Assembly (NCBI GenBank): GCA_051294905.1
Contig: CM119372.1
Coordinates: 34,164,001 to 34,228,000, forward strand
Length of the DNA: 64,000 nt
Source: Botryllus schlosseri
Taxonomy: Eukaryota
Direction of reading: 5' to 3'
The translations under genes were made by a program, and so were the position numbers. Positions 7,313-47,400 of the stretch are shown here, in pieces. The notes under the pieces were generated by a model. The model was not told the origin of the DNA, ran no database searches, and saw only the letters and a list, made by a program, of their open reading frames with translations. Numbering within the stretch: position 1 is the first letter of the stretch; each line of letters opens with the position of its first letter.

Positions 7313-10285
7313 CATAGTGTCCTATATGGTGTCGACACAAGCAAATCGCACGGTTCAATGAAATTGTATCACGTCACAGTTTCCATTTGGCTACAGGCAA
7401 TTTGACGGTGATTTTTGCCCGACTTGCCGAGCATTAAATTTGATGAAGCGGGTATCAATCGAAAGCTGACGCTGTACTGCTTGCGAAAATATAAATTTCA
7501 TTCCACTCATGGCCCTGGAACCCCCACAATCTGCCCCAAATTATTCATTGTCTAGTAGATTGGCAGTGTGACGCAACAATGATGTCTGGCGAAACGAGAG
7601 ACTAGCTCAAGAGCAAGGATGCGGCCGAGCGGCGAGAGTGGGATCAGCTGACGTCGCGGCAATAGCAATGTGCAACCGCGCCACAGAGAAACGCTGCGCT
7701 GTTGATACTTTTTCTATGCGTTCCGGTACAAGCGAGCACACACCAGCCTTTCCTTGACTTGTAAGGGTAGAACTGGGTCCACGGAATGTATTAGGGCCCT
7801 ACCAATTTTCGCGCAATATCCTTCAGCTGATAGAGATATGTAGTCTACATTGGATATGTCAGATTATTATGATATCGATTGCCTTAGCCCGCTTGTTGCG
7901 TAAGGCTCCAGAGCAGACTTGGACAACTAGATAATTCTAGTTGTCTAATTTCACTAAATTAGAGCGAAATGCCAGTAATCTAATTCTAATCTAATTTGTG
8001 AAATGTTTCCATGCTCTAATTCTAATTCTAATCTAATTTGTGAAATGTTCTTCTGCTCTAATTCTAATTCTAATCTAATTTGTGAAATGTCCCTATTCTC
8101 TAATTCTAGTTCTAATCTAATTATTGTTTTAATGAAAATGCCTCTTTGTCCGAGGCATATTGCACTATTGCGCAGGGAAATCCAGTGCCAAGCCGCCATC
8201 GCCTTACTTACACCGTGCAGTCATAGTAGATATTATGACGAATAATAGCCTGCTAGAGTAGCTTGTAGTCTGCGAACAAAATTCTAGTTTTTAAAACTTT
8301 ACGTTAGTACATCGCCGTTCTGACTAACATGGGCGATGTCCATGGTTATTATGAAGAAGTAATATTGTATTGGTGTACAGAAGTTAATGGGAATGCACTG
8401 ATGTTGTTGTTGTTGTTTATTGAACAAAAATATGTGGCGCTTATCGCGTGACGGCCTTTTGCACCACGCACTGTGATTTGATATGAACTGGATTTTGCTG
8501 TGTTCATTTCCCATATACAATTTCATTCAATTTCCAATTTTTTGCGAACTAAGTAGCTCTAATTCTAATTCTAATCTAATTTGGAAAAAACTTAGTAGCT
8601 CTAATTCTAATTCTAATCTAATTTGGAAAAAGCTGTGGAGCTCTAATTCTAATTCTAATCTAATTTGGAAAAACTGTGTAACTCTAATTCTAATTCTAGT
8701 CTAATTTGAAAAAAACTATGGAGCTCTAATTCTAATTCTAATCTAATTCAGAAAAGCTGAAAATTTTCTAGTTGTCCAAGTCTGCTCCAGAGATGCGTGG
8801 CGCTGTTGATACTTTTTCTACGCGCTTCGCTAAAAGCGAGCACACACCAGCCTTTCCTTGACTTGTAATGGTGAACTGGGTCCACAGAATGTATTTGGTC
8901 CCTACCAATTTTCGCGCAATCCTTCAGCTGTTAGAGATATTTCTAGTAAGAAAAATATACTTTCAAGTAATAAGATTCACTCAAGACAGCAAATTTAGAT
9001 AATGTAAATATATCATATTGTAGTAATACAACTACAGTGTTGAGTTTTCACTCTAGTCCCCATAAGCACCACGTCGGTGACCTTGCCAAATTCCGAGAAG
9101 GCGAAAAAGTGCAAACTCTGTTGGGCCGAATGGACAATGGACATTCAGTTATTCACAGATGCGAAAAAAATACTGCAAATCCGTTTTAGGTAAGTTACAT
9201 TAGGAATATATATACAGACTACAGAATGAGTATAATTCAAATATCTGTGATACCACTGTATTACTTTTGACGCAAAATATCCCCGGCATTCAAAAAAACT
9301 ATTTGGTGATTGAAAAATGCTAAACCAAATTCCAACGTCAACGTTTATAGTGATATCAGATATATTCCAATGAAAAACAAAGGTATGAATTTGGTGCTAA
9401 CATTTTGGAATCATTTGGCAGGTATGGCCCGCAAGCTTTCTAGTAACGGATTGAATCCGGACAGCGATTCCAGTTTAATTCGACACTCCTGCTGTTAAAC
9501 TTTATTCAACAATCAACATTTTACCTGCTGCATTCGCGGACCAAGTCCCACCCATACGGATCAAATAAAAGCTTGTAATGTATGCTCATGCTCAATGCTC
9601 CTTGCTCACACTTAACCATAAAAGCGACTATAGAAAGTATCTACACCCGCCATCAACAGCGCGACGTGTCTCTGGAGCCCTACGCAACAAGCGGGCTAAG
9701 GCAACCGATATCATAATAATCTGACATATCCAATGTAGATTACTTAGACGTAGCCTACATATCTTTATCAGCTGAAGGATATTGCGCGAAAATTGGTAGG
9801 GCCCTAATACATTCTGTGGACCCAGTTCTACCCTTACAAGTCAAGGAAAGGCTGGTGTGTGCTCGCTTGTACCGAAACGCATAGAAAAAGTATCAAAAGC
9901 GCAGCGTTTCTTTGTGGCGCGTTTGCACATCGCTATTGCCGCGACGTCAGCTGATCCCACTCTCGCCGCTCGGCCGCATCCTTGCTCTTGAGCTAGTCTC
10001 TCGTTTCGCCAGACCGCATTGTTGCGTCACACTGCCAATCTACTCGACAATGAATAATTGGGGGCTGATGGTGGGGGTTCCAGGGCCGCGAGCGGAATAA
10101 AATTTATATTTTCGTAATCAGTGCAGAGTCAGCTTTCGATTGATATCCGATTCATCAAATTTAATGCTCGGCAAGCCGGTCAAAAATCACCGTCAAATTG
10201 CCTGTAGCCAAATGGAAACTGTGACGTGATACAATTTCATTGAACCGTGCGATTTGCTTGTGTCGACACCATATAGGACACTATG
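7313..10285. mobile_element. Foldback element with ~620-bp TIRs, P/Galileo-like
   Basis: 7313-7913(+8793-8810) is the reverse complement of 9651-10285, with the first ~100 bp identical; termini CATAG...CTATG; 7-bp TSD GTTGAAC (7306-7312, 10286-10292). No transposase seen. Confidence 0.85.
7914..8784. mobile_element. hAT-type MITE with (TCTAAT)n subterminal arrays, nested in the foldback left arm
   Basis: TIRs CAGACTTGGACAACTAG / CTAGTTGTCCAAGTCTG; perfect TSD CTCCAGAG (7906-7913, 8785-8792); absent from the right arm. Confidence 0.92.
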
Positions 10286-18584: not shown

Positions 18585-19933
18585 CTATTGGCGGGTGCTG
18601 TAATGCGCCCAAAAAGTGAAGCCACTTGACACCACTGTTAACCCGGATAGCATGTGCAGCTGGATCGATACGCATGCAAGATCTGTCAAGATATAAACGA
18701 TCATTGTACCACAGGCCAAACCAAAAGTTTGCACGACGTAAGCTGAATTGTGATCAATAAAATAGGTACCGGAAATCATATAGGCCTACACAGTCACTCT
18801 ACGTAAAGCGTGCGTCGCACCCATCAGGATAGCCAGAACGGTCCGTGGACATATTGTGCGACCTAATTGACGGTTGCCAAATGGCAGCCACTGAATATCC
18901 AGATGCTTCCACCACCAAACTCAGTATCAGTAGAAATGGCATCGGTGTGTAATTTCCGAGTGCGGTTACCGATGAACAGACAAGGAATGAAGTATATACG
19001 TGACGAACAAAACCTTATCTAAATGATCAACACCGAGCACACACGAGCCATAAGCGCGTGACATGTCCGACCAAATGAAACCAGCAATGAAGCCTTGCTG
19101 CAATAGGGCTGGAATGGTCAGCAAACCTGGCTTTGAAACCGCGTGACGAATCAAACGTTAAAATTAATTTTTACAATCTACCATCAATTCCGTGAGATAC
19201 CCCAAATTTCTATTTTCGCTTGACACGGCATACCATTGAACCAATATATACCCAGTACTTGAACTCCGCAACATAAGCACAGGTACATACGTATAGAAAT
19301 TAACGTCGGTACCAATTGTCTACTAGAATCAGTCGCAAACGCGTAATCAGACGGGCAATCGTTTGCTGCGCGTTTTGTCAAGTCACGAGTCGAGTCTGAG
19401 AAATTGGTGAAGTCATCAGTGATTTCCCTTTTTAAGAACAAGTCAGGCACAAGGCTGAAGATAGCTTGACCCAGCCCCAGAATGGCGACGAATATTCCGA
19501 CAGCCGCTTCAGTACCGACTTGTTTGTCACTTGGCTGCGTCGACTGCGATATTGATGAGATTATGACTCCGAGTGCGGGCATTATTAGGCCCCCGCCGAC
19601 ACCCAGCAGCATGCCTGCGGGCGTTACAGTCCAAAATCGAGGGTAGCCTATAGCAACGCTAGAGTAAATAACAACGAAGGAACTTGGCCTAAATGTAAGC
19701 ACGCTTTCTTCCCCAAAATACTAATAATTGGTACGTAAATCAGCAGTGTCACAATGCAGAGAGCTTCGTAAACCACTACACTAATCGATCCCAGTTCCCA
19801 GTGCGCCCTTCACTCCAATGCTTCACTGTAAGGCAGTAAGATTGTACTGCAGGCCAGCAACCATTGCAAAGCCAATTGAAACTTCATAAATGCGTAGTTT
19901 AGCGGACATTGCTCTTCGCCCCAAATCCACCAT
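18585..19933 (-). pseudogene. UNC93A-like: UNC-93-like MFS membrane protein pseudogene (intronless, frameshifted)
   Basis: Colinear UNC93 motifs: LTALQ-SI, YPRFWTVTPAGMLLGVGGG, AANDCP, GFIAGFIWSDMSRAYGSCVLGV, C-terminal TMs (ISGTYF...FGLACGTMIVYILTDLACV); internal stops and frameshifts. Confidence 0.8.
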
Positions 19934-20850: not shown

Positions 20851-23595
20851 GGAATTATAAACTATTTTAATACGCTACATGCCTCTACTTGCACATTACC
20901 ATAAAACGAACAATTAATTTTCCGCTTAATACAGACATACCCGTTTCTCCGTTTAAATCGGCCAAGAGTGTGCGGAACAAAACAAAGTGCGCTCAGCATC
21001 CACGGATAGCATGAAGGAGAAAAAACGTGGTGCGGACCAGTGGTGGCCCTGCGATTGGAGGGGCTCTTGGCGAGGCTTCCGGAGGGGGGGGGGGCTACAA
21101 GTATGTAATCGCAGCTTCTGGAGGCAGACCTCCATTTCGCATCTATTGTTACCAACTTAATATAAGTGCGCCATTGGGAAACGGGATTACGCGGTGTGCA
21201 TATGGCACTTTAACAAGACTTTGACACAGGCCAAAATGTTGAATTGCTCTATAGCTCATGAGCCTTCTTTTATCATACATGGTCAAATTATGAAAGATGT
21301 GAACCAATGTATGATTCTCACCGCTTTAGCGCCCCTATGGAGCGATGGCGGTCGTAATTGTTCCTCCATCAGGCTACCATTGTGTGCAGAAATATTGCCG
21401 TTGTTTTTCCTCTATGGCGACTCGGTACTGCGAATGCACGAGTTGTTGGTTATTGCAACACTACTATCGCCTGATTTCATGTCATTGCTAGCGAAATCCA
21501 GACCCTACTTCTTCATTATAGCTGTTTGAGAAGCCTTAGCGTGTGACTGTATTTTTGCTTTAATTCAACTGTTGCCGACGTTGTCTTCTGATGTCACTAT
21601 AGTAACAGTAACAATTTACACAGCAATGTATGGAGCTTGTATAGTCTTACACAGCAATGTATGGATCTTGTATATTCTGAGTTGTTGACGGGTCTACCAG
21701 AGTTCAGTTTTGCCGACGTAGACAGAATTGCTAGTGAATCAAGAGGTAACGAAAATAGTAAAGGCTATAAATTATCCGCTGAATCTTACATACGAGATTT
21801 TAGAGGCATGTTGTAATTTATACTAGCAGAGGTCCTTGGTAGATTTATTCAAGCACTCAAATTATAGGCTCCTAACTGGCTTTGAGAATTAGACTTCGTG
21901 ACTTTGCAAGTATCATCTGTGATCCTGATGAGTTTTGGGGTGGGCGAGGTGGGCGGACGTCCGCCCCCCCTGGTCGAAGGCCCCCCCAAGGATAATGACG
22001 AATAAACATGGAAATCCGTGTCAAGCAAGAATATGATTCCGTACATATGTGCCAATCGTCATCAAATCACTGCATTTGTTAGAATAGTCCCGTATCCCGA
22101 TAATCATCACGTCTCAGCATGCGGTAGAATTACTTAGTTTTGATGTAGTCTATCCTTGCAGACATGCAAAATAGACATGGCCGAATCCAGCACCTGGGCA
22201 AACCTTTGCGGTGACGAAAGATAGATAATAATACCCGCTGCGAAAGGGGGGTCCAGAAGTTACGGATAGATACTTATAGGGGGCCCCCGGTAAGTCTCGC
22301 CCAGCCCCCCCCCCCCGTTCGTAGGGTCGCCACTGAGTTTGAGCATGTCAGTATCAGCACAGTGTTGTTGGGGTCAATGCTTGATATTGCATATTGTCAA
22401 AACAAAAAATTGTGCTGGAAACTAAAATCAAATAACTTGTCAACAAATTGTTTAGTAATAAACAAATACGAAGCTTTACAATATGACTACAAATTGCTAC
22501 CATTGCAATGTTTCCAGTTGCACTGCCCCAGTCCCATGATTGTCAAGTGCACCATATACTGCTGCAGTATTTTATGTTCCAGGTGCAGATGTGCCTCATC
22601 GACCAGCCACAACGCCACGGACCATCGACAAGGATATTTCGAAATCTGATGAGAAAGCTAGAACTGTCATGGACACCTTGCTCATTTGCGGGATATGAAA
22701 GCGTCATGGAGACCCGGAGATCTGTCATTTAAACTGGGTTTAGACTTGTTCTCCACGGTGGACACATCCACCAAGCCGCTAGCTAACTCCCAGTTGTGTC
22801 CCGGATAGCTTTGTGCATATAACCGGCTAGCTCATAGCAAATAAATTGCCAATATATCTGATAATTTGTCAATATACAATACCCAACAGAACTATTGAAT
22901 GTTATTTGTTTGTTTATTGAGCAGATAAAAAATGAATGGGTTAGCGATATAAAGCAGACTTGACCTGTGTGTATGTAGCCACTATGGCCATGTGGTGCGA
23001 TACCAATCAAGCATTTACAAGTTACATAGTTCTTATAGTAATAAAAATGCTCACTCTGAAGAAACAAGCATGGTGGTATCTGCACTTGTTATTCACAGCA
23101 GTCAATTATTATCATGTTTGCTACCATAATTTCCTCATCTGAAGGATCAGGCATATGTTCTCTGATTTTCTCTCTATTCACCCAAATTGCGAATTTCCCA
23201 AGAGTAAAATATGAACAATTTGCGTAAGTTATCGATAATCTTCTAACAGATGCAGTGGGCAAGTTGAATCGAACACCAAGGTCTTTCACTCCAAAGCCTT
23301 GGTGAATCCGACAAAGAAATAAAAAGAGTTCGTCTTGCAATGGCAGAGTTTATGACTTTGCCTTGAAATTCTTCAATATACCACTTCTGAGATCATTTTT
23401 AACAGCTGATAAAATTGGAACAGTTGCAGCTGTTGATGAGACTATATCAAAAAACTTCAAAACAAATCCATAACTTGAAAATCCAGAGTAACACAGAAAC
23501 ATATGTCATCGGATGCTTTGAATCGTGCACAAAATCAGCTTCTCTAGCTCGTTACTTAAATCCCGAATTATTCCCTTTGCTTTAGGGTTCTATAC

Positions 23596-23997
23596 CAATA
23601 CCGAGAAAACCATTACCGAGAACGAACATTACCGAGAACGCTATTACCGAGAATGGACATTACAGAGAATGGACACCACAGAGAATGGACATTACCGAGA
23701 ATTGACACCACAGAGAATGGACATTACCGAGAATTGACACCACAGAGAATGGACAGAACCGAGAATTGACACCACAGAGAATGGACAGAACCAAGAATTG
23801 ACACCACAGAGAATGGACATTACCGAGAATATTGACAATACCGAGAATGGACATTACCGAGAATATTGACATTACAGAGAATGTACATTATCGAGAATGG
23901 ACACCACAGAGAATGGTCATTACCGAGATTATGGACAATACCGGGAATGGACATTACAGAGAATGGACACCACCGAGAATGGCCATTACCGAGAATG
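23596..23997 (+). repeat. Left TIR array, ~25 x 16-bp unit (TTACCGAGAATGGACA / CCACAGAGAATTGACA variants)
   Basis: Direct reading of tandem units; reverse complement of 34385-34926. Confidence 0.95.
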
Positions 23998-26900
23998 TAT
24001 ATTTCCGAATATGAAGAATGTCGTGAAAGCTGAACCAGAAAATACCTAATATCACGACGTTGGGATCAATGTTATTTATAGTTGTTACGCGCTGTTGTCC
24101 AAGGGACCGCGCAGTGAGTTGGGGAGTGCGCGCAGCCTCGTGAAAAATTAGAGAGTGATGCACATACGATTTGTGTTTGTGCAATGTGCAATGTGCATAT
24201 GCAAAACATGCGTGCATTATAGGCATTGTGCATATGAGACAGGACAGAAATGTGGTAATCTAACCCGTTTACTGTAAAATGTCTCGTACTACTTTCTGCC
24301 ACCGATAAGGTGATAAGCGTCGCATTGTTTCCTTCTGAACAATTAACAATTAATAATAACAATATGCTGCTGGAAGGGGAAGGTGCAGAATAGCCTTATA
24401 AGGCTTTCTAAGTCGAGCAAAGTAAACATTATTGAGAGGACATTACTAGTAGCCTAAAGCCAACCGTTTGCTGAAAATGACTAAGCTGCATCAACCGAAA
24501 ATGTAGGCCATGATCTGCCTAGATACTTGTTTATCCCCTTTTCGAGATTTGAAAGAATTGATGCCTTCTTGCTTCATACCAATCACAGCAGCTCGATGAG
24601 TTCCGCTAGTATTACAGATATCCGTTCCTTTGAAGAAAACTATTGTGTCATAGTTTGCCTTTTCGCTATCAAGCAGATAAAACGAATTGAGATACGAATC
24701 ACAGCAGGTTGATGGGTTATTAGAGGTATCCATGCCAGTGAAGCGATGGAATTCCTTATCGAACCATAGTTTCTTTAGTGGCTCTTAATCATATTATGCT
24801 CTTTTAAGATTAGAATCACAGCAGGTTGTTACAGATTTGTGCGCCAGTGAAGCGAAATTATTCAATGTTATGCCGTAGTTGCGGTATCATCATCACACTA
24901 ATGTGGAGTGTTCGAGACAATCAGCTGTTTTAAAACCAACCGTATCGGTCAATCACATGCTTTACGACTAAAAGTCATGACAGGTGTTGGTCAGCTAAGG
25001 AAGGTGGACGACGAATGGCAGAACAATCAGGACCTAATGTATTAGCAAAATACATTACTTCGACCCGAGGAAATAAGTTAATCGCTGTTGGCGAGTTCGT
25101 ATTTAGGAGAATGAAAGTTTCGAATGGTACTTCGTACTGGATATGCACGCATTATGACAGAAAAAAATGTCGGTGTTCATTGAAAGTCCTTGAAGGATCA
25201 GAGCCACCAATCGTTCTGAAGCAATCTCAAGAACACAATCACTGTGCTACGTTTGGCATAGTAGAGGCAAAAGAAATGGTTCAAAGGTATGATGTTATTT
25301 CAATATCGTTTTATGGGAAATGTATTCACGTCTAGCCAGACCAGTGGTTCTCAAACTGGGGTCCGCGAGACAATTTTTCGAGACCGCGAAACACGTTCCA
25401 ACAAATTCACTAATAATATTGAGTTTCCCGTTTGCTATTTCGGCTCGTTCGTGAATAGCGCAATACCGTTTGTGAACCGAATGCATAAAGAGTAGTGATC
25501 AATCGTTTTCGGGGGTTGCATTTGAATTTGAAATGGTTGAATGTTATTCACAAAACTAGACGCTGGAATTAAATATATGAAAAAGGAAAAATCCTGATAA
25601 ACGGTGGTAAAGTCAAATGATTCAATAAATATAGTTTGTTACCCACACATGGCAACAAACCTTCAAGTCTATTTTTGAATGCAGTCCTCGAATTGTGCTA
25701 TGATGACGTCAAGTTTCATTACGTTTGAAGCTGGTCTTTCGATATGTTTACTTGCGATGACGCTAACGTATGTTGCAAGTTTATTATAGTGCTTACCAAG
25801 AATGGCATTTTCTTTGGGATCAAATAACAGTCTCTATTTAGAATGAAAATCCAAGGTTCCGTAAGCAACGAAGCACCATCGAAAATATATGCCTCTGCAA
25901 TGGCATCCGCACAATTAAGTCCCTCAGGGGCAATTGCGATGGGGAGGAAAGAAGCCGTAAAACGAGCCATACGTCGTGTTAGATACAGAAATAATCAAGC
26001 GGTAAAGTATAGAAATAATATTAGCTATTTGTTAAAATGAAATATATTTCAATTACATTGCTTTCAGCCCTCTCTACCAAAGTAATTACAAGAACTGGAG
26101 ATTGGTACCTTGGAAACATCCGGAGGGGAAAATCTGGTTCTGTATGACAGTGGGCGATCAGCCAGTAACAGGAGATTTATCGTCTTTTCTAATGATACAT
26201 TACTAGAAAACATGACAAGGTAAGGACATATCTCGCTTTTTTATTAATTCGATACGTTGCACATGTCTGAGCAGCGTAGGCCAATGTATATATTTCTATA
26301 GTGGAGTGCCGTTATCGTTAATATTTAGGTTTGGTGATGTCTTTCTATGTAATGTACTGATATAGAAACAACCGTTAGCTAATCTAATGTATTGTCGCAC
26401 TGCTGTTAATTTCATACTAAGCATTTTTAAAAGGGTTGTTTTTCTTCTGCCTTATTCTCGATTATTCACCAGATACACAGAATGGCACGCCGACGGCACA
26501 TTTAAAACTGTGCCAAATCTCTTCCATCAGATGTACACCATCCATTTTACAAAAGATCATGAAACTGTCCCTGGAGTTTACGCTCTCTTGAACCATAAAG
26601 ACGTATCCATGTACAAAGAGTTACTGTAGGTAAATCATAGACGTCGTTTCGATGGGTTTACAAACATGTGTAGAGCGCTACACCTGCATGAGCAGTGAGT
26701 CTGCATATTCGACTATGCGTAACTAATTAGCCTATTCCTATATCAACAGGTGCTAAAACAAAGAGGCCAGACTTGAATCCGACAACACTTATGCACGACT
26801 TTGAATCCTCAGCGATTCGAGCATTCTCGGAAGTATTTCCGAACATTAAAATCACGGGCTGCCTATTTCGTTTGAGCCAAAATGTGCAGAGAAAGGTCCA

Positions 26901-27424
26901 GGAATTAGGTTTGAAAACTGAGTATCAATCTAATTCCGGTTTCTCCGCTCAGGTAAGCGTTCATTTTAGCTACGGCGTCAACGCTAAGTGTAAAACGGGA
27001 TGATTACTTTCAGGTGAAGTGCTTGACGGCCCTTGCTTTTGTGCCCGAGTGCGACGTCAAACATTGCTTCGAAATATTGACTTCTTCCAACTCAGGCTGG
27101 CCAAGTTTTGCCGAAGACTTGGCTAATTATTTCAGGGACACATATATAGGTAGGCTATATTAACAGATGCAATCTTTTTCACTGTTGCGGATTGGATTGG
27201 CCACATTGAAATTCTTGCTGATCTGGATTATTTTGTATTCCGTCATCAGGTTTGAATCAGTGTAAGATAGTATAGCATTTTTGGTGTGTTGAGATGTCTA
27301 AAACTATGGGGTAGAATCGAAGACTACTCTAACGATGTTCATATTGTTATTATTGTATCTTCACGACCTTGTTGTTCTATCTTAACCACCTAAATCTTTA
27401 TAATCACCACCCGTCAGACTAGAT

Positions 27425-29467
27425 CAGTGATTCCCAACCGCGGCCCTGCGGGCCGCATGCGGCCCCCAGCTAGCCTTCTTGCGGCCCCCACAAAATATTG
27501 AGAAATCGATTTATGAAAAAAATTACTTTTATAATCTACTCTTGTTTGCCTTGGAGTCTGGAGTTTTCAATTAGGATTGCAGGATAGTTGTGAGTAGACT
27601 GCTAAGATTACGACACTGCTGTTTCAATGCAAAGTGCCCTAATTTTCCAGTTGAACGGGCAGTACATAGTTATAGGTATAGAGATAGGTATTGACAGGAC
27701 CGTAACTGCCGCACCCAAAGCCCCCCTCCCCTCCATTGGGGGAGCGAGCTCGAATGGGACCTAAAATTATTTATTGAATAAGTATAAATTATAGAATATT
27801 TTATGAAATTTTATGCAACTTTTTCAAAGATTTTTCGCGCTGCGCGTGATTTCAAGTTCCCAAGTACCCTAATTATTGGGTTACTCTTCGACCAAGATAA
27901 AGTACGCAAGATTTATAGAAGTTGGCATATCGGCGTTGGCCATTACCGCGCCACGACGCGCGAAGACATATAAAGTTTAGGCCATGTAACATGCGACTCC
28001 AAGAAGTGTGCCAGAACGATCGGCAGTGAGAAAACCTTGGCCGTAAAGGACTGCCCTTACGCTGACCGAAAACTTCGTCATGTATATTCAAAATACATAT
28101 AGGTATAATTGACCATAGGCGCCTGAATGACTAGCGCCGAATGTTCTTGTCTTGGCAATCTGAACGTCACGAAACAAATAGGCTACCATCCCGCAGGGAA
28201 GAATTATATGCCAGTGAAGAACTACCAATTTGAAATCGAGTGCATCTTTTAGTTTAGTATGTTTGGGCGATTCTATATTTCTTGATATAGCAGACTGGAG
28301 GTCACGAAATAACAATTATTATCATGTAACGAAGTCGTACCAACGGGTCCGCCCGTCCAAATATGTTAATTATTATTTACGGACCCTACAGTTTCCAAGA
28401 CACCTCACTCAGCTCTACCGGTAAATCTGATTACGCGAGCAGAGATGATAAGCAATAGTAGCAATATATATGCAATTCCCGATCTTATTGACCTATTTTA
28501 TTTTGAATTATCGAAAATTTTCGCGCTCCACGGTGGCTCATTAAACGGGGATCCTGATTTCGTGGCAGAAGCGAACAACGGCACGGGGGTTCGGTTTATC
28601 AACCTATGGGAGCTCAAGACCTAAGTGTTTTGGGGGGCCTGACGAAGTGCTGTTTCGTTCCTGCCAACGGGTAGGCGCCCGAAGATGCTTATTTATTATT
28701 GAGTGGTCCTACCTTTTCCAACAGAGCTCACTCGGCTCAACCGGTCAATCTGATTACGTGAGCAGAGAGAGGATAAAAATTGATATCAATATATACGCAA
28801 TTCCCGATTATATTGACCGATTCAATCATGAAATACAAAAATTTTTCGCGCTTCGCGCGATTAGTCGATAGTAGCTGCCTATAACTGACACCCGATTTAG
28901 ATGATAAATAGCGGTAAACAGCCATCTAGCGTGAGGGGTCTGGGGGCCTCCAAGTTCTGTTTATCACGCTATTGGGGGGGGGGGGGCAAGAGAAGGTTTT
29001 TATTGGGGGGCTGACGAAGTGCTGTTACGGCCCTAGGTATTGATAACTAATTTGCGGATAGATGTGCAACAAGTGCCTCACAATTCAATACGCCGAGATG
29101 CGTACTGCTTAGCTGGCAAAAAGCAGCATAATTGGTAGTCCTATAGCTCGCGACCCAAGCGTCCGAATAATTTGTTATGTCATAGTTTATTGGAAGCAAT
29201 TGTCGCACTGATTCCAAAAATACGATTTGAAATCTCTCCAGGGCAATAAAACTACTCCGAAATAGCCAGCAAAGGTTGATTGTTCTGAACAACGGGAGCG
29301 CGGCAACACAATGGCCAATGGCGCCAAGTGAATGATCGGAACAATGCCAATTTTCACATTTTGGTGATATTTTGGGTTCCTTTCATTTCCTTGGTATTCG
29401 TGCGGCCCCGGCCGTTTCCTGAAATTCTAAATTTGGCCCTGCCACCGAAAAAGGTTGGGAACCACTG
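27425..29467 (+). mobile_element. Non-autonomous hAT element, family C, copy 1 (MULE intron 6)
   Basis: TIRs CAGTGATTCCCAACC / GGTTGGGAACCACTG; closely similar to 30365-32900; flanks GACTAGAT/CTATGCCT do not form a TSD. Confidence 0.85.
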
Positions 29468-30364
29468 CTATGCCTGCGATGCATTTATATACCAACAACA
29501 CTAATCGATTCCCATATTAAGTCATCAATAGCGGCGCCGAAATTTGTTTGCGATTCGCTTTCGCCGCTTTGTGACCAAGTCATTATTCACATATCAGCCT
29601 ACTGAATTGAATAAAATAATCCATCTAACTCTATATTTTAATATATAACTTAACTGGCATACGTTTATGCGTGTAGAGACGTAAACGCGAACTGGCATTT
29701 GTACGTACATAGATTTAACCCGATTAATCTACTACAATTTAAAACATTGCCTGATTGCAAAAAAGCACACCTCTCCCCCTTTTGATTCACCTCTGAAGAT
29801 TGATGACACTTTTGCGAATTGTCCATGACTAACGTCTTTTCATTATCACATTATATCAAACATTGATAGTACCGATTTGCTTCGCGAATATATGAAGTAT
29901 TTACTATTTAACTCATTATTGTTTCTGCCTTAGGTATCACGAATGATCAACAAGGCAGTAATAGGCGGCCGCTGTTCCCACCCAGCATTTGGAATGTGCG
30001 ACAACGTACCATCGATGGCATGCACCGAACCAACAATTCTGTTGAAGGATGGCATCGCGGCTTCCGCGTTCTAGTTGGAGGATGTCACGTAACCATTTGG
30101 AAATTTTTAGAGTGTATAAAGTGAGTATAAACAATGGAAGATGTATATGTGTACTTGGTTTCAACTTGAATATACATATATATTTGAAGGATGGATGTCA
30201 TGCAAAATCGAGTGCAGCTGTTACAAACTTCCACAGGCCAGGCAACGCCTAAAAGAAAGAAAAAATACGTCGACATTAGCGACAAATTGAAGCGGCTTTG
30301 TGATGAAGCGTGGTCAACCGACATGACTACAGATTTTCTGCCTAGAGTGGCATACAATCTAAGT

Positions 30365-32900
30365 CAGTGATTCCCAACCGCGGCCCCGAGGGCCGCATGC
30401 GGCCCCAAGCTAGCCTTCTTGCGGCCCGCACAAAAATATTGAGGAATCGATTTGAGAAAAAAAATATATATTTATAAAATACTCTTGCTTGGCTTGGAGT
30501 CTGAAGTTTTCAATTAGGATTGCAGGAAAGTTGTGAGTAGACTGCTAGGATTACGTCACTGCTGTTTCAATGCAATGTGCCCAACTTTCCAGTTAAACGA
30601 GCAGTTCCTATAGATACAGGTATAGATCAGTGGTCAGGAACCTTTTTGTTCGAAGAGCTATATTAGCCCTATTTTTTCCATCTCAACTCCCAAAGAGCCA
30701 TACATGCTAATCAGTTGTTACGTCACAATTGAAAATTCGTGACGTTATGGCAGCACTAATTCGAACTCACTACATGGGATTTCTCGTGTGCGCCATATTT
30801 TCTCTGTAAAAACAAGTATTTATGGTTCGAAAATAACATGAAAATAACATGATACCTTCCTATCTTTTCATTTTATCGCAGTCTTATGATTTTTGAACGA
30901 TGCGTATTTGAAAACTGCGTTTTGAAATTGGCGTCGCTATGTTTGCTATGCTCTTTGATTAATCAACGTATCGCACAATTTAGGATCAGGGATATCTAGA
31001 AGTTCTAGAAATCCCTGTTCAAGATTTCGAGTTGGGTACATAGAATTCGGGAGTGATATTGGCCGCCGGCGTGACAGAAACTTAAATATGATGATTTTAA
31101 AAAGAGTGGGTCTGAGCTCCTAAATCTTAAGGCGACATTGTCTTTACCTCTCAAAGACATGTTTATACTGCCACGAGAATAATAATTCTATCCATGATGA
31201 AAATTTACCAACAAGTCGCCGCAATATTGATCAATTCAGTAAAAAAATAGATATTTGGCAAAGAGCCATATCTTATACCCAAAAGAGCCATATATGGCTC
31301 GCGAGCCATATAGGTTCCAGACCACTGCTACTCTTCCACCAAGATAAAATACGCAAGATTTATAGAAGTGGTCATATCGGCGTTGGCCATTACCACGCGA
31401 CGACGCACGAAGGCATATACAGTTTTAGGCCATGTAACATGCGACTCCAAGAAGTGTGCCAGAACGATCGACAGCGAGAAAACTTGGGCCGAAAAGGACT
31501 ACCCTTACGCTGACCGGAAACTTCGTTATGTATATACAAAATACATATAGGTATAATTGACCATAGGCGCCTAAATGACTGGGGCCGAATGTTCCTGTCT
31601 TGGCAATCTGAACCTCAAGAGACAAATAGGCTACCATCCCGCAGGGAAGAATTATATGCCAGTGAAGAACTACCAATTTGAAATCGTGTGCATCTTTTAG
31701 TTTAATACGTTTGGGCGATTCTATATTTTTTGATATAGCAGGCTGGTGGTCACGAAATAAAATAACATCATGTAACGAAGTCGTACCAACGGGTCCGCCA
31801 GTCCGAATATGTTTAATTATTATTTACGGGCCCTACAGTTTGCAAGACACCTCACTCAGCTCTACCGGTAAATCTGATTACGTGAGCAGAGAGGACAAGT
31901 AATTGATAGCAATATATATGCAATTCCCGAGCTTACTGACCTATTTTATTTTTCATTATCGAAAATTTTCGCGCTCCACGCTGGCTCACTAAACGATGAT
32001 CCTGATTTCGTGGCAGAAGCGAACAAAGGGACGGGGGTCGGTTTATCACCCTATGGGAGCTCAAGACCTAAGTGTTTTTGGGGGGCTGACGAAGTATTGT
32101 TTCGTTCCTGCTAACGGGTATACTCCTGAAGATGTTCAATTATTATTGAGTGGTTCTACCTTTTCAAACACAACTCACTCGGCTCAACCGGTCAATCTGA
32201 TTACGTCAGCAGAGAGAGGATAAAAATTGATACCAATATATATGCAATTCACGATTATATTGACCGATTCAATCATGAATTATAAAAAAATTTCGCGCTA
32301 CGCGAGATTAGTCGAGAGCAGCTGCCTAAAACGGAAACACGATTTAGATGATAGATAGCGGTAATCAGCCATCTAGCCTGAGGGGCTTCGAAGCTCGGTT
32401 TATCACCCTATGGGGGGGGGGGCAAGAGCAACGTTTTATGGGCCTGACGAAGTGCTGTTACGGCCCTGGGTATTGATAACTAATTCACGGATAGATGTGC
32501 AACAAGTGACTCACGATTGAATACGCCGAGATGGGTACTGCTTAGCCGGCAAAAAGCAGCATAATTGGTAGTCCTGTAGCTCGCGACCCAAGCGTCCGAA
32601 TGATTTGATATGTCGCTGTTTATCGAAAGCAAGTGTTGCACTGATTCCAGAAATACGAATTGAAATCTCGCCTGGGCAATAAAACTACTCCGAAATAGCT
32701 AGCAAAGGTTGATTGTTCTGAACAACGGGAGCGCGGCAACACAATGGCCAATGGCGTCAAGCAAATGATCGGAAAATGCCAATTTTGATATTTTGGTGAC
32801 TATTTTGGGTTTCTTTCAATGCCCTGGTATTCGTGCGGCCCCGACCGTACTCTGAAATTCGAAATTTGGCCCTGCCACCGAAAAAGGTTGGGAACCACTG
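30365..32900 (+). mobile_element. Non-autonomous hAT element, family C, copy 2 (in last MULE exon)
   Basis: Same TIRs; perfect TSD ATCTAAGT (30357-30364, 32901-32908). Confidence 0.93.
30628..31327. mobile_element. hAT MITE nested in family C copy 2
   Basis: TIRs CAGTGGTCAGGAACCT / AGGTTCCAGACCACTG; absent from copy 1; no TSD. Confidence 0.8.
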
Positions 32901-34384
32901 ATCTAAGTGAATAAATAGATAATAGCTATCACCACATATTTAGCATCCTTTCTGATGAAGAAACGCCAAGTCTGTGTTGGTGATCACCGCTGTACCTATT
33001 TATCCTCTGGATGTTTCATTTTAGCATGCCACAGACAAGTAATAAAATGCAAATAACCTGGAACATGATTGCTCATAATGTTGGAACTAGAGTTTCTGGG
33101 CTTACAGTAAATTCAGAACTTCTCAGTCTCTTATTTTTGCTAGCCGTAGAAGCTTTAAAACAGTAGGAAAGAAGCGACAAGGAAATATAGCGTGACTATC
33201 TGCAAGATAGCGTAATGGTTGGCTGTCAGTTGTCAGGTTGCTGAGTAAAACGGCAGCCTACTGATAAAATATTCTGCGATTGTAACAGCTAGAATTATCA
33301 TCATCGCGAAATGAAATTCGGGTCCAATTAGTACGGTACAGCGGTACGGTTAGTACGGTATCATTGAATATAGATATGATATATTGCATTACAAAGGTAA
33401 GTGCATAATTCGTTGATTGTCCGATTGTTGAGCGAAGCCATTACCTAGGAATCACAATCGTCACGGTCATAATCGAATATATTTCTGCGTAGGAATATTA
33501 CGCAGTGTACCGTTTGTCTAGGTTTGCTAACTGCTTTAGATGAAAAATGTACCTCGGTTAATTGTATACGCAGCGATCAACGAAGTTTCTTTATCTTGTG
33601 CTGTTCAATCCTGATGAACGCGATAATAGAATTTTTAATCAACCCAACTTTATTATCTACGCCCTACATTAAATTGTGTTTGCGCCCAGAATCACCACGA
33701 GACACGTTCTCTTACAATAAATCGCGAGCCAGATTTTCGTGACGGTCACTACTGATTAAACACGCACTTTTTCCATAGTAATCATCTGCTACCAATATTA
33801 ATTCTTGTCTACTTGATACACTCTATTCCCGAATTATCGCGTCAGCCTAAACATATGAATTATCGCGTCAGCCTAAACATATATGTTGACCAATCTATAG
33901 AATGACTAACCGTCTACTGAAAATGAGTATGCCCATGCCGCAAATGAACAATGTAGCGACCATGATTTGCCACCATATTTGTTACTCCCTTTGCGAGCTC
34001 TGTGAGAGTTGATGACTTCTCGATTTCAACCATATTATACTCTTTTGAGATATGCATGACAACTGGATGCTACAGATTTCCGTATCAGTGAAGCGGAGTA
34101 GGCTAATTCGTATGTCACCGTTGGTACACGAATCGGAAACGTTGTAGACAATCAGCTGATATTGTAAAACCGCTTTAAAACCAACCCCATTGATTGATGA
34201 TCACATGCTTTAGGACTACAAGTTCACGTGTACAATTCATGCATGCACTCATGCAGGCATGTCATGCATATGTAGGTACAGATCGCGTGTATGTGCATCA
34301 CGGCTATGCCACATTCGGTGTCAATTCGCAGGTATAATTTTACCGACAACGTCCGTCTCAGTAAAATTGATTCTCGACATTGGC

Positions 34385-34926
34385 AATTCTCGGTAATGTC
34401 CATTCTCGATAATGTCCATTCTCGGTATTGTCCATATTCTCGGTAATGACCATTCTCGGTGGTGTCCATTCTCGGCAATGTCCATTCTCGGTGGTGTCCA
34501 TTCTCGGTAATGTCCATTCTCTGTTGTGTCAATTCTCGGTAATGTCCATTCTCTGTGGTGTCCATTCTCGGTAATGTCCATTCTCGGTGGTGTCAATTCT
34601 CGGTAATGTCAATTCTCTGTGGTGTCAATTCTCGGTTCTGTCCATTCTCTGTGGTGTCAATTCTCTGTAATGTCCATTCTCTGTGGTGTCAATTCTCGGT
34701 TCTGTCCATTCTCTGTGGTGTCAATTCTCGGTAATGTCCATTCTCTGTGGTGTCAATTCTCGGTAATGTCCATTCTCTGTGGTGTCAATTCTCGGTAATG
34801 TCCATTCTCTGTGGTGTCCATTCTCTGTAATGTCCATTCTCTGTGGTGTCCATTCTCTGTAATGTCCATTCTCGGTAATAGCGTTCTCGGTAATGTCCGT
34901 TCTCGGTAATGGTTTTCTCGGTATTG
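34385..34926 (-). repeat. Right TIR array, ~34 x 16-bp unit
   Basis: TGTCCATTCTCGGTAA / TGTCAATTCTCTGTGG units; longer than the left array. Confidence 0.95.
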
Positions 34927-35756
34927 GTATAGAACCGATTGTTGCTACTTTGACCAGGAATTTTTTCTGGAGTATGCTGTCCACTACAAATACAGTTAGA
35001 TGCATTAATAACATGCCGACAGAAATGAAAACATTCATATACGGTATATTTACGATCAACTAAAAATGGCAGTTATTCAGGTACATCTACGTTTTTCAAG
35101 TAATAGAGTACCTTTTACTAAATAATTAGTGTTGATGGCATAATCAAGTGCAGAAAAAAATTCAACGTAAACAATCACCCGAATCACAAATGAGCCGAAT
35201 TGGATAAAAGGTCTGTCAGCTTGCCACACACTAATATCACTAACAATGTTCGGTCATGATGTTTGTCACAGTTCAAGTGATACAGCAGCTTGGGATTGAG
35301 CTCTGGATTTTGCTGCACTAATCATAATAACCAGACATACTTTTACGCGATTCTAGAATGGCCAAGCACACCTTGGATATTTTTCACTCAGTTGTGCAAG
35401 TTGTATTTTTGGCTGCAATGCACTCTACATATTGCTGAAAAGGCATATCATGTAGTGATTGGACTCTTCCTTCCACCCAATTGATATATGTGCCGAGTTC
35501 GCGAAATGTACCAGTCATTGTTAAGAATTGAAAGTAAATTTGTAGCATCATATCATGTCAGTTTACATTGATCTCACCTCTGATGCCTGTGCAACACCCT
35601 TCTTGATGGTCGCGACTTCATCCACTTGAATATCCCAGGAACTGCTCCAATTTTCAAATAGTGACTTCTGCAAGACAAAATCCTCGTCATTAAAATATTC
35701 CCTTCAAACACGTGTATTTCCAGTTATCTAGAAAAAAGTCAATAGCAATGATATCA

Positions 35757-40985: not shown

Positions 40986-43619
40986 CAGACTTGGACAACC
41001 AGAAAAATTTCAGCTTTCAAAATTAGATTAGAATTTAAATTAGAGCTACATAGATTAGAATCAGAATTATTGAATTCGCAAAATCTTGGAAACTGAATGA
41101 AATTGTGAATGAGAAATAAATAAATACAGCAAACATCAAGCTCTCGGCTCATATCAAATGACAGCACATTCCCACAAACATGAGAATGGTTAACGTCTCT
41201 ACACAAAGCTTGGCTTGTATTGCACAATACCAGGCGTCACAAACACGCGGCTCGGGAGGTCATATTTCGCGGTCACGATCTGAATAGTGGCCCAGACACT
41301 ACCATGACCAGGACGCATAAAAAACAGCTTAGGGCTTCCCCACGAGATCTATCTTTAAGATGAGATATTCTTTCAGCTAGTAACATGTCTGACTAGCCGT
41401 AATATCGATTCGTTAGTCGCTGAAAAGCGTTGTCAGGTATCATGCGCAGCTCATAGTTCAAAATAAAATGAAGTTGATGATCATGATATTTCTTATTACA
41501 TTTGTAATTCTTTAATAAAACATTACTTCTTTTGTGGTAACTATACCCATCACCCATGTTAGTGAGCGCGGTGTTGTAATAAGGTCAAGTTTTAAAAACG
41601 TGGTACTAAACTGTGTGGCCTATTTTGTCTCGATATTGCATTCCTGCGGCCTGTGGCCTCTACGAAATTTGAAAAGTGGCCCGCGACCCTTTTTGAGTTG
41701 GCGTCCGCGTACGAGTTTTCGAAAATCAGTTTTGAGATGAGAAAATCGATTCTCTCTTTTTCAGCAACTTAAAACATCACAGTCCATGCTATCACGCTCT
41801 GCAGCGAAATATCATTCCACGTCCTCATCTAATTTATTTCCTTTGGTTAGATTTGAAGCAATCATCATATTCTTTTTCGTGATGTACTTAAGGGTATGAA
41901 AGTGAACAAGCCTGTATTAACTATCTCCTTTTCTGTGCTGCTGTTCTGCTGGTGATTGAGACTATAAGGTTGTATGGCTTTATTATTCATCACAATACCT
42001 GCTATTACACTGTACAGCAGTGGTTCCCAACCTTTTTGTCTTCATTCGCCACTTCAGGTTTATTCCGAGCCGTCATTCCCCACCAGGACCGTAAACGCGC
42101 GAAGCGCGAAAAATTTATATAATTCATGTTTGAATCGGTCAGTATGATCGGGAATTTCATATATTTTGCTATTAACTTTTATCCCCTTACCGGCAGAGCT
42201 GAATGAGGTGTGTTGGAAAAGGTAGGACCCCTAAATATGAATTAAAAATCTTCGGGCAGACCCGTTGATATATTGACTTCGTTACATGATGCTATTTCTT
42301 GACCTCCTATCATCTGCTATGTCGAAAGATATGGAAATCGCCAAAACTAAAAGGCCCACACGATTTCAAATTGGTATTGCTTTACTGTCAAATATTTTTT
42401 CCCTGCGGGATGGCATTTGTCCTGTGGGGTTCAGATCGCCCGGACATGAAAATTAGGCGCCAGCCATTTAGCCGCCTCTGGACTATTAAACATGTATGTA
42501 TTGTATATTGTATATATATTGAAGTTTTCGGTCACCACAAGGGCATTCCTTCTTGGCCAAGGTCTTCTCGCTGCTGATTGTTCTGGCACACTTCTCGGAG
42601 TCGCATGTTACATGGCCTATAATTTCATATGACTTGGTGCGTCGTGGCGCAGTAATAGCCGACGCCGAAATCTCCATTTCTATAAATTCTACGTATTTTC
42701 GTTGGAGAAGGGTACCCAATAATCAAAATATTAGGCAATAGTAAATCGCGCGCCACAGGTAAAAAATAATTTGAATAAGTGACACAAATTTCCATAAAAA
42801 TACTCTATAATTTATGTTACTTCACGAAATCATTTTGGGCCCCTTCGAGCTCACACCCCCAATTGGGGGGTTTGGGGTGCGGCAGTTACGGTCCTGTTCC
42901 CTACTACCCAACACTTTTGTCATCACAGAGCAGCTATTTGCTGGTTTGACTACACAAGACACACAACCACACCAGTACGCCAAGACAATCGCGTATAACT
43001 GCAACGTAAAACGTATTGTTAACCGATACAAGTAACGCTCAAAATTTCGAGAAAGCGTTCTTTCACGTCAAACTAGTCGTGCTGGATGTTTTTGTAACGC
43101 CATGATTGGAAATCCAGAGTTAAAAATGAGGTTTTGTGAGCACCGCGCGATATAATTTTAGAAACATACATTCCAGGGCAGTTAACTGGTAACGATAATT
43201 GCATATGGATCTCCGTGAATATGTAGACTGTCATGGAGATAATTTTAAACAACCTCGTCTATTCCCCACCAGAAACCATTGAGTTCCCCACCAGTGGGGA
43301 ATTCCCCACCGTTTGGGAACCACTGCTGTACAGTGTAACGCACTGGCGGCTTATTGGCACTGGATTTTCTAGCGCGAGATTGCAAAATGCCACGGATAAG
43401 GAAGCATTTTCCGGAAAACGATAAATTAGAGTATATATATATTTAACAAATTAGATTATAATAAGAATTAGAGCAAACATGAACATTTCACAAATTAAAG
43501 TATAATTAGAATTGGAGCAAAGTAACATTTCAAAAATTAGACTAGAATTAGATTACTGGCATTTTGCTCTAACTTAATGAAATCATAGGCAGCTCTAATT
43601 ATCTAGTTCTCCAAGTCTG
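40986..43619. mobile_element. Second (TTAGAA)n-family MITE (inverted relative to 7914), expanded by nested hATs
   Basis: TIRs CAGACTTGGA / TCCAAGTCTG; TSD CATCTAGG/CACCTTGG (6/8); empty site CATCTGGG at ~6895. Confidence 0.8.
42018..43325. mobile_element. Non-autonomous hAT element sharing an inverted internal module with family C
   Basis: TIRs CAGTGGTTCCCAA / TTGGGAACCACTG; perfect TSD CTGTACAG. Confidence 0.9.
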
Positions 43620-45356
43620 CACCTTGGCTGCAAGGTGTTTGAAATCAGGCTGATATGATGTCAAATCAGTGCGGAGCAGTTCCTTCAAGTGCTGATGAGC
43701 ATTTAAGGAATATTTCAGCATGGTAATCTTATTACTCTGTAAGTCTGTATTTGTTCGGTAACTCGTGGTAAAGTTTTGGTGTTTGGTTTCGTAATGACGT
43801 TTAAACTAACTTTATAGCTTTGTAATTATTGAGCGCACTCGGCAGATAGTTTCCCTTCTCTGAGCTATAACAATCGTCAGAGTCGCTTTTCTTTCAAAGG
43901 ATACATGACATTCACAATCACGGTTGTGCTCTTTAGCATAGGGATACCATATGTCCTTAACCGGACTTTGCAAGCTTCGCCTAGCAAAAACGTCAATATA
44001 ACGACGATTAAATATATAATATCAAAAAGGCAGCTTTAAATGAAGTTTGCAATATTACTTTTGGTTGCGTGCATTTAGGGTTCGAGGCCCTAGGGTACGC
44101 GTCACACGTTTGGGTTTTGGGGTTTGGGAAACCCTGCTCAACACCTTTAAAGTACACAATAAAAATAAGAGGGCGCCCGAACAAGAATAGTCTTGAAATG
44201 GCGGGCTGCAAGGAAAATACTATAAGAAATGCTGATGTGAATCATGTTTCTGTTCTGCTTTGCAAATCAATAGTTCGACTGGTACTCAATTCTAGTTCTA
44301 CCATCAATTGCCCTGTATTGCCAATCGCAGATGTGAATTCGGGATGATTCGAACCACAGGGTATGGGACCGTACCGATTGTTGTTATAACAACCTTGATT
44401 TGAACCTGAATACGCTACATACGATAAAAATATGGTTTATTGTAGTCGAGTATAGGATGAGCTCGAAGGGTGCCCTAAGTTATTTCGATGAACGAACATA
44501 AATTACACATCATGTTTTGACGACTCCTCCACTAAAAATAGGCATAAGCTATTATACAAAATAGAAATAGACATTTTGGCATTGGCCATTACCACGCCAC
44601 GATGCACGAAGACATATGAAGTTCCGGCCAATTTGAGACTCCGAGAAGTGTGCCAAAAGATCGTCAGCGAGAAAACCTTAGTCGAAGAGGATTGCCCTTA
44701 TGTTGACCGTAAACTTCGATGTATATAAGTCTAATCTTTCATAGGTGCTTAAATCACCCGTGCCGAATTATCATGTCGTCGCAATCTGCACCCCTCAGGA
44801 CAAATAACATCCGTCAGAGAAAAAATATTTGCCAGTGAAGAAATAATAATTTTGAATCGTGTGCTTACTTAAGTTTAATACGTTTCAATATCTTTCGACT
44901 ATATAGCGGACAAGAGGTAACAAAATAACAACATGTAACGAAGTAATTATACCAACGAGCACGCCCGAATATGTATAATTATTAATTACGTGGCCTTCAT
45001 TTTCCAAGACAACAGCTCACTCGGCGCTGCTGGTAAATCTGATTACGTGGGCTGAGAGGATAAAAAGTTTTAGCGACATATATATGCAATTACCACCCAT
45101 TCTTTCATGCATTATAGAAAATTTTGACGCATAGGGCGACAGGGCCACACAAACTTTACTGACCATCAAAATCACGTTTGGTTTATCACGCTAGGGGTGT
45201 GCAAGACAATAATTTTTAGGGGGACTGATGAAGTACTGTTACGACCCTCCCTCTTACCCATTGTCTTTATTACAGTCCCAACAATATGGGGGGGGGCGCT
45301 AGAGTCCGATAATTTTTGAAAGGGGGCGCTGGAGGAAAAAAAGGTTAAGAACCACG

Positions 45357-45989: not shown

Positions 45990-47400
45990 GAGAGAGACAG
46001 AGAGTCTTTATTTTCAACCAACCAAAATACATAACACATGGCGGTGGTGGTGGTACAGAAAATATGCATGCACAGTATTCGGTATTAGATAGGAATGATC
46101 GATAAGACCGTGAAGTTCATCTAGTCTGAACAGGTACGCTTGACTCTAAACAGTCTGGCTGTAAAAAATGTTACGATAGTTAAAAAAAATAGAAGAAAAA
46201 TTAAACGATGGTAGGAAATGATCAATGAAGCAATGTCTGGGCGAGATAGGGCAACAGTGTTAGTGTAACGACAAGAGGTGATCAAGTATTAGGGCTTTTT
46301 TGAATCTATTATAAGGCGATTCACGGATATGTGGTAGTAATGCATTCCAGATGATAGGCCCCGAGTAGTCGATAGATCTCCTTGTAAGGTTGCTATTGGG
46401 TGGGGGTTAGTAGATATTTCCTTTAGACAAGGATCTCGGGTAATAGGAGTGGACATTTTTAGCAGGCATGAAAAAGTCATCAAACACAGGAGGCAAACTA
46501 TTGGAAAAATATTTGTGAATGACTTTTGATACTTCGAAGCGATCTAGTTCGTCAACTTGCAAAATTCGGTGCTTACGGTAGTAAGGCGATAGTTTGGTAC
46601 GTGAAGGTACAGATGAGATCAGCCGTATCGCACGGTTTTGCAGGGTTCGAGTTCTGCACAAAAATGTTGTGCATGCATTCCCCCATACTACGATTCCATA
46701 TTGCAGGTGAGAGTGGAAAAGAGAGAAATGATGGTTGGTAGTATCGATCTGGAAACAAAAGATTGCAGACGGGTCATTATTCCCACACACCGAGCTAGTT
46801 GTGATATTGTGCATTCAATATGCTGCTTCCAAGACATTTTGGCATCAATGGTGACGCCGAGACATTTTGCAGAGTCACATATGGAGATTTGTTTATGATT
46901 GATGTTCACAGTGAAACTATTATGATTGGCATTATTTGAAAGGAGCATCTCGTTCTTATCTGCATTCAAACTTAGTTTGTTTGCTTGCAGTCATCTCGAC
47001 ACTTTCGGGAGTTCCCTATTCACGGATGCATGCAAATCATCGACAGTGTTGGAGGTTATGAAGAGGTGAGTATCATCAGCAAATAGGGTTGTGCGGAATA
47101 AAGATGCATTAACAATGTCGTTAATATAAACGAGGAAAAAAGTCGGTCCAAGGACTGAGCCTTGTGGCACTCCACAAGTTATATCTCTGGTAGTCGTTCT
47201 TAATGTCCCCAGTTTAACGAATTGTTTGCGGTTTGCCAGGTAACTTCCAAGTAGAGTTGCTGCAATACCCCTGATTCCATAGTGTTCTAGCTTGTATCTT
47301 AAGATTCTGTGGTTAACTGTATCGAAAGCTTTGCGGAGGTCTATAAAAATGCTGCAGCCACTTTTATTTTGCTTGATGGTTTTGTAATAGTAGCACCAGC
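45990..47400 (-). mobile_element. 5'-truncated CR1/L2-group LINE (RT + C-terminus + 3' UTR)
   Basis: IFIDLRKAFDTVNH, GVPQGSVLGP, LFADDT, KCLGVTID, LQYGIVVWG, LQNRAIR over three frames; AATAAA plus (TC)n tail at ~45990-46012. Confidence 0.93.

Follow-up and report, generated by a model that had tools for sequence, protein, structure and literature searches.

A 64,000-nucleotide (nt) stretch of the Botryllus schlosseri genome (GenBank assembly GCA_051294905.1, contig CM119372.1, positions 34,164,001 to 34,228,000; hereafter the window, numbered from its first letter) raises the question of what a transposase gene divided into eight exons represents when it is framed by two long, inverted arrays of 16-bp repeats. 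It might belong to a transposon family, to a host gene derived from one, or to an intact element disfigured by assembly. It is very probable that the element is a dead member of a young Phantom-type family of Mutator-like elements (MULEs), probably present in multiple copies, with foldback ends and cut-and-paste movement, and that family probably has intact, transcribed members. The initial annotation had proposed a Phantom-type foldback element with FLYWCH and MULE domains, and Pfam matches to both domains, the score on a profile of relatives and the residues shared with 45 relatives now bear this out. It had omitted two hAT-like insertions within the element and the missing target-site duplication (TSD).

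Inverted ends and the transposase gene

The two outer parts of the element (23586-23830 and 34692-34936) are 96% complementary across 245 nt, and their outermost 39 nt are identical, as the inverted termini had first been described. The inverted similarity continues from there through the arrays, which gives the long terminal inverted repeats (TIRs) expected of MULE/Mutator elements. Tandem Repeats Finder assigned a period of 16 to both arrays, with 24.6 copies on the left (23611-24008) and 33.8 on the right (34370-34911), close to the approximate 25 and 34 counted before; parsing into units gave 26 and 36, mostly of 16 nt and some of 15 or 18. A two-unit rhythm of 32 bp runs through the arrays, the right arm exceeding the left by about ten units in its middle part, and four 8-mer array cores have 4 occurrences outside the arrays in the window. 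Such subterminal tandem repeats within the TIRs, unequal in number between the ends, are the structure of type-2 Foldback elements. Within the arrays, further inverted similarity did not exceed chance (score 40, shuffle maximum 42), and the tip hairpins were no more stable than shuffles (z -0.28 and -1.28). The one exact 22-nt match to the tip among metagenome contigs (L001, 5196-5217) lies inside a bacterial ABC-permease gene and was rejected as chance.

Between these ends, eight exons on the + strand are joined by seven GT-AG introns of 555, 66, 253, 120, 61, 2784 and 69 nt (Table 1), in phases that are compatible once a 1-nt loss in exon 5 is allowed for. The predicted spliced product is a FLYWCH plus MULE (DDE) transposase of about 481-482 residues, and both domains were matched in it. 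Searched exon by exon, Pfam placed FLYWCH in exon 1 above its cut-off (PF04500, E 2.4e-11) and split MULE (PF10551) between exon 4 (profile positions 2-49, E 7.7e-4) and exon 5 (63-99, E 6.9e-5), each half falling below the cut-off alone. Exons 3, 7 and 8 had no Pfam match, and exons 2 and 6 had unrelated sub-threshold matches only.

A search with exon 5 returned 2,239 relatives, and further work proceeded from the best 150. Sixteen of those are 400-600 residues long, and nine proteins (eight and P0018), all with both Pfam domains, were kept for a profile, while tandem-duplicated, MULE-only and RING-bearing proteins were left out. Since the nine were chosen via exon 5 alone, the other seven exons provide an independent test. 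With X at its three breaks, the spliced model aligned as one 471-residue domain to profile positions 2-466 of 469 at 452 bits, against 4.3 for the best of 200 shuffles and -3.0 for the reversed sequence. All eight exons scored individually and in the correct order, and the proposed junction ranked first in six of the seven introns among 20-33 in-phase alternatives per intron, so that the complete gene of eight phase-compatible exons put forward earlier is upheld. No PHD finger or protease, the add-on domains of Rehavkus-like MULEs, was matched by Pfam in the eight exons (an upstream exon was not searched for), and the model aligns along the whole FLYWCH+MULE profile and leaves no segment over, which sets it apart from Rehavkus-like proteins.

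Among 45 full-length relatives (from 263 proteins), D202, W380 and E398 are shared by all, and D264 and C285 by 44; position 288, an Arg in the window copy, is His in 44. The model thus has PF10551 with the D, D, E triad of MULE/Mutator transposases, at spacings of 62 (D202-D264) and 134 (D264-E398) that fall within the MULE ranges of 60-76 and 120-135 (PMC13359780; sources given by PMC number were available in part). The (C/D)xxH motif and the Trp before the Glu are represented by C285 and W380, the His being replaced in the window copy but kept in contigs of three sequencing runs (X1, X11 and X17) and in 44 of the 45 relatives. Phantom elements are defined by an N-terminal FLYWCH and a MULE domain in one protein (PMC3169594), and form group 20 of Dupeyron et al. 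(2019), with proteins of about 450-550 residues, an architecture that the 481-residue model shares. In a tree of 46 rows the model nests among animal-type FLYWCH+MULE proteins (10-row clade, 97/97). Among the best 150 of the 2,239 relatives, the 80-residue fragment P0001 is 82% identical, and its similarity starts at one border of exon 5 and is lost at the other, suggesting that a sister family also has introns 4 and 5. A word-index search with exon 5 gave 11 candidates, none of which was scored; solved structures offered no transposase match, only the human FLYWCH1 finger 2rpr; and self-BLAST of the small introns, in which an introner origin was looked for, found no mutual similarity.

The window copy is unable to make a working enzyme, because the first of its two in-frame stops (26083-26085) falls at codon 150. 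The second stop (26627-26629), a frame break near 26763, where exon 5 is one base short, and an Arg in place of the CxxH His (26869-26871) complete the four lesions, all seen as originally listed, and the copy lacks the uninterrupted frame of an active autonomous element. It had also been called full-length. Both ends are indeed present, but about 4.6 of the 11.35 kb (40%) is later insertion of two hAT-like miniature inverted-repeat transposable elements (MITEs), and no TSD was found. Both inserts are copies of a non-coding element of about 2 kb with 15-bp hAT-like TIRs; the hAT label is our presumption from the TIR and 8-bp TSD pattern rather than from a library match. Without them the element measures 6,763 bp and intron 6 about 740 nt.

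Sequencing reads from the species

The gene region is present in 20 of the 24 listed runs, 19 of these under one species label and from 8 studies, and none of the 20 is on record as RNA. Four runs were compared over 24050-30420, with the arrays and termini outside this range: X1; X11 and X17, which are only guessed to be RNA; and X24, a single-cell RNA run of which 3% was read. At 26627, 26763 and 26870, all listed contig depth of X1, X11 and X17 carries the open-frame or His letter, and at 26084 all that of X1 and X11 carries the open-frame letter (X17 has no row there). The residues read from these contigs, Ser at 150 and Gln at 247, are the commonest among the relatives (17 of 45 and 9 of 45). 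The initial annotation had supposed that intact relatives may exist; with the open-frame letters in three runs this has become probable, and we infer one intact copy.

Sites without the inserts were also found. A joint from 27424 to 29469 skips the insert of intron 6 in X1 and X11, and contig 22 of X17 lacks the insert as well. In addition, 361 X24 reads leave the window at 30364 and go on with the sequence beyond the second insert (32901 on), and therefore come from insert-free copies. These reads belong to a transcribed 3' end, where X24 coverage of the last bin comes almost wholly from one strand (depth 229 against 2), with second mates on the + strand; in the common 3' single-cell chemistry this is the sense strand. 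Seven X24 RNA molecules end exactly at 30190, the exon-8 acceptor, and contig 23 of X17 matches only 29931-30120, which is exon 7 with three bases that could belong to either side of the junction; past the two borders, 24 and 522 letters of the contig are left unmatched. Together these observations support the splicing of introns 6 and 7, and introns 1 to 5 are predicted from the gene model.

Several further observations concern the transcribed region and its surroundings. The natural stop codon overlaps an AATAAA at 32910-32915, and since the read consensus continues 30 nt beyond the insertion point without a tail, the later polyadenylation signal at 33041 is probably the one used. Upstream of the start codon, 24263-24688 shows a one-stranded X24 RNA signal (depth 13-29), separate from the exon-8 peak, and X1 DNA depth about twice the gene-body value, which would be expected of deletion derivatives that retain the left end. 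The 79 bp at 24075-24153, a short way inside the left array, belong to a repeat present in very many copies; they are 90% alike to 5286-5364 and reach a summed depth of 32,387 in X1. A degenerate, directly oriented copy of the 5' leader (24462-24975) lies close to the right end (33908-34223), in blocks 74-78% alike (local score 123, shuffle maximum 49), possibly an old internal duplication that aims a promoter-like region out of that end.

Table 1. Features of the element and of its transposase gene, in window coordinates
Feature	Position	Strand	Support or remarks
Phantom-type element, whole	23586..34936		11.35 kb including inserts
Left foldback TIR: 11-nt imperfect-palindromic tip motif, then about 25-26 units of 15-18 (mostly 16) bp	23586..24010	+	
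Exon 1: carries the start codon and an entire FLYWCH zinc finger, with C44, C52, H74 and H76 intact	25015..25286	+	PF04500 E 2.4e-11; 40.0 bits on relatives' profile
Exon 2: linker/helical region, weakest-supported exon	25842..26001	+	9.8 bits, profile positions 80-129, in order; junction ranks
Exon 3: in-frame stop 26083-26085	26068..26219	+	14.7 bits
Exon 4: D202, first Asp of the triad; ends in the stop codon 26627-26629	26473..26629	+	Pfam MULE 2-49; 63.4 bits
Exon 5: D264, second Asp of the triad; CxxH motif whose His is replaced by Arg; 1-nt loss near 26763	26750..26952	+	Pfam MULE 63-99; 83.9 bits
Exon 6: insertion-domain region	27014..27149	+	31.0 bits; tblastn of relatives
Non-autonomous hAT-like insert in intron 6	27425..29467	.	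15-bp TIRs, no matching 8-bp TSD; not Phantom family sequence
Exon 7: conserved Trp (W380), catalytic Glu (E398)	29934..30120	+	74.1 bits
Exon 8 up to the insertion: basic stretch like a nuclear localization signal, residues 443-449	30190..30364	+	25.4 bits
Second hAT-like insert, 88-90% like the first, two codons before the stop	30365..32900	.	perfect 8-bp TSD (30357-64 / 32901-08)
Nested 700-bp hAT-like piece within the second insert	30628-31327		
Displaced end of exon 8: last codon, stop, 3' untranslated region with AATAAA at 32910 and 33041	32901..33060	+	
Right foldback TIR: about 34-36 subterminal units and tip motif	34340..34936	-	

Other sequences of the window include a lone hAT-like TIR in intron 1 (25342-25356), for which no partner was found nearby, and a further hAT-like MITE at 42018-43325, kin to the two inserts and with a perfect 8-bp TSD, to which pieces at 44561-45250 are related. 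On the - strand, 19187-19720 is an open stretch that resembles an exon of a membrane protein, presumably UNC-93-like, with no Pfam match and one 433-residue relative at 54%, and 46407-47602 holds fragments of a reverse transcriptase of the long interspersed nuclear element type (PF00078, E 5.9e-16). Tandem arrays of 42-44-bp units and related sequence lie at 7937-8760 and 43441-43552.

Alternative explanations and the missing duplication

A number of results weigh against the reading of the element as a dead copy of a Phantom-type family with intact, transcribed members. No TSD above chance was found at offsets up to 8 or within 30, 60 and 150 nt of the ends. The junction of intron 6 ranks second of 24 (a variant that adds a stop scores 1.1 bit higher), and alignment gaps adjoin junctions 2 and 6. 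The nearest full-length relative is 36% identical, and the rows of the tree included no canonical Phantom or Muta sequence. As to transcription, the junction reads that the initial annotation called for came in part: the 3' end is transcribed and introns 6 and 7 look spliced, but no exon-exon joint is among the joints listed (15, with 336 further). X11 and X17, the guessed RNA runs, both cover introns, and X24 has nearly no reads across exons 1-6. Finally, no record spans the whole gene in any of the four runs, and the open-frame letters are therefore not phased into one copy.

One alternative is a single-copy, domesticated FLYWCH-MULE host gene that gained its introns while resident and kept its old foldback ends, the window holding a broken allele and the reads a working one. 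Seven introns, transcription and the lack of a TSD are expected of a long-resident gene, and contig simplification could mask a second allele. Nevertheless, this explanation is improbable. Tips that are identical for 39 nt and 96% alike over 245 nt fit poorly with long immobility, the DDE triad, CxxH and W are retained in the read-supported form, and a gene that the host needs would be unlikely to have an allele with four lesions and two insertions. Gene-body depth in X1 is 168-392, compared with about 10-30 for several single MITE-variant contigs and for a paralogue piece of about 91% identity, a rough hint of ten or more copies of the family, although it comes from summed contig depth, which is not itself a copy number. 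Slimmer still is the chance that the window copy is truly intact and that its four lesions are assembly errors. Every contig compared has the open-frame letters and none has those of the window; the absence of the latter can be attributed to contigs dropping rare variants. Against assembly error, the window also departs from the contigs at many neutral places of introns and leader (among them 24204, 24516, 25457, 25756, 26387, 26725 and 27240) and by one 7-nt and one 2-nt length difference, three of the four lesions are substitutions, and the copy bears two multi-kilobase insertions, one with a perfect TSD.

The missing duplication bears on the history of this copy, the one copy with flanks examined. 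A TSD of 8-10 bp is a criterion of MULE/Mutator elements, and tables of Phantom elements include members with the TSD listed as not available (PMC6446971). With none here, the two ends may not stem from one clean insertion. It is reasonably likely that the copy belongs to the same family but arose by recombination between two copies at different sites, suffered a one-sided flanking deletion, or is an assembly join of two loci across the repeat. Such a history accounts for the missing TSD, is compatible with a dead copy of a Phantom-type family, and fits the fact that the TSD is missing although both tips are perfect. The hAT-like inserts at 27425-29467 and 30628-31327 likewise have no TSDs, which suggests that local rearrangement is common at the locus, and for a Tm1 element without TSD a crossover between two elements has been proposed (PMC3169594). 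On the other hand, the flanks have no match elsewhere in the window and so give no pointer to the route (recombination, deletion or mis-assembly), and a family that produces no TSDs, or asymmetric ones, would explain the same observation.

Related systems, proposed mechanism and significance

The closest well-characterized system is Muta1 of Aedes aegypti. Its transposase combines FLYWCH with DDE, its tip is an imperfect palindrome of 10 bp, linkers of 3-4 bp separate its 12-bp repeats, and its TSDs measure 8-9 bp; losing the CxxH His or the W abolishes or nearly abolishes activity (PMC5225508). Muta1 cuts with a hairpin on the flanking DNA; its full transposase binds the tip motif but fails to bind one subterminal repeat on its own, both are required for cleavage, extra repeats raise binding and excision, and the accessible passages do not map repeat binding to FLYWCH (PMC5499845). 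Compared by description and spacings rather than sequence to sequence, the window element shares with Muta1 a FLYWCH + DDE protein of about 500 residues, a D-to-H spacing of 24 and a W-to-E spacing of 18 (Muta1 D283-H307 and W401-E419), and type-2 foldback TIRs with an imperfect-palindromic tip and units of 15-16-bp period, the repeat number of which varies among Muta1 derivatives. The accessible descriptions of Muta1 give 2 exons, 9 repeats per end, 145-bp TIRs, a length of 3.2 kb, TSDs of 8-9 bp and demonstrated activity, whereas the window element has 8 exons, about 25 and 34 repeats, arms of about 425 and 590 bp, some 6.8 kb without its inserts and no TSD, and is broken.

By analogy with Muta1, the transposase of an intact relative would recognize a short palindromic motif at each tip, then load cooperatively along the 16-bp arrays, cleave with a hairpin on flanking DNA and insert with an 8-9-bp duplication. 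The arrays are thus most likely cooperative loading sites, and it is plausible that FLYWCH is the domain that reads them. As a loading enhancer of variable length, they would tolerate unequal copy numbers, which may drift as the 32-bp dimer slips or is exchanged unequally. The two stops, the frame break, the change of His to Arg and both MITE insertions would have arisen in the window copy once it had inserted, and the duplication would have been lost from its flanks.

Tm1-A of Meloidogyne, a Phantom-type Mutator/Foldback element with a protein of 496 residues and 7 predicted exons with partial complementary DNA support, is similar in its FLYWCH + MULE protein and in composite TIRs with repeats (13-15 bp in Tm1-A) unequal between the ends, and some Tm1 copies also have no TSDs (PMC3169594). 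It differs in having 6 introns rather than 7, a length of 2.6 kb, asymmetric 7-bp outer motifs and a FLYWCH without the last His, which is complete in the window (PMC3169594). Phantom Cs of Ciona savignyi is likewise a tunicate Phantom with very long TIRs (613 bp), although it measures 4,006 bp and has a 9-bp TSD (PMC6446971). Unnamed FLYWCH+MULE proteins of 450-490 residues (P0009, P0159, P0063 and 42 others) have the same length, domain order and catalytic residues at 30-38% identity; many of them sit on contigs of 1.5-2.3 kb and may be transcripts, and collections based on open reading frames (ORFs) favour intronless genes. Among viral contigs, one of 63 pattern matches was confirmed, a distant Phantom-like element of 1.95 kb (L002, 4717-6668) on an insect-virus-like contig. 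Its TIRs, 132 bp long, include repeats of 38 bp, and its transposase is encoded by two overlapping ORFs that, unlike the window gene, have no introns over the matched region.

Every design feature of the window element has a published counterpart. The earlier view that so many introns are unusual holds against Muta1 and Muta5, with 2 and 3 exons (PMC5225508), and must be tempered by Tm1-A, which has only one intron fewer (PMC3169594); seven introns are high but precedented. Plant CACTA transposases have 1-6 exons (PMC4158355). No Phantom with more than seven introns was found in the searchable literature, which excludes Repbase, subscription papers and the original Phantom description; Tm1-A was the closest case there, also when any animal transposase richer in introns or the gene structure of a tunicate Phantom was looked for, and the accessible part of bioRxiv 10.64898/2026.02.11.705288 contains nothing on introns. 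A more far-reaching proposal, which we regard as rather doubtful, is that of a currently transcribed, still mobile chordate Phantom family whose seven introns were gained after it diverged from relatives with few introns, and which shares two or more intron positions with the sister family of P0001. If true, this family would surpass every Phantom in the searchable literature in intron number, and would offer a naturally occurring test case for how selfish elements acquire introns and for whether splicing restrains transposition. It would also be a candidate source of endogenous mutation in its host.

Irrespective of that proposal, the element adds a well-supported example to a known group. 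Since its longest exon is 272 nt, ORF-based transposon surveys, for instance under a rule of intact ORFs above 300 residues (PMC13359780), would miss such families. The long, unequal arrays together with a complete FLYWCH finger make it a good substrate for asking which transposase domain reads foldback repeats. MULEs are reported to be poorly documented in chordates (PMC6446971), and a young, expressed tunicate family would fill this gap.

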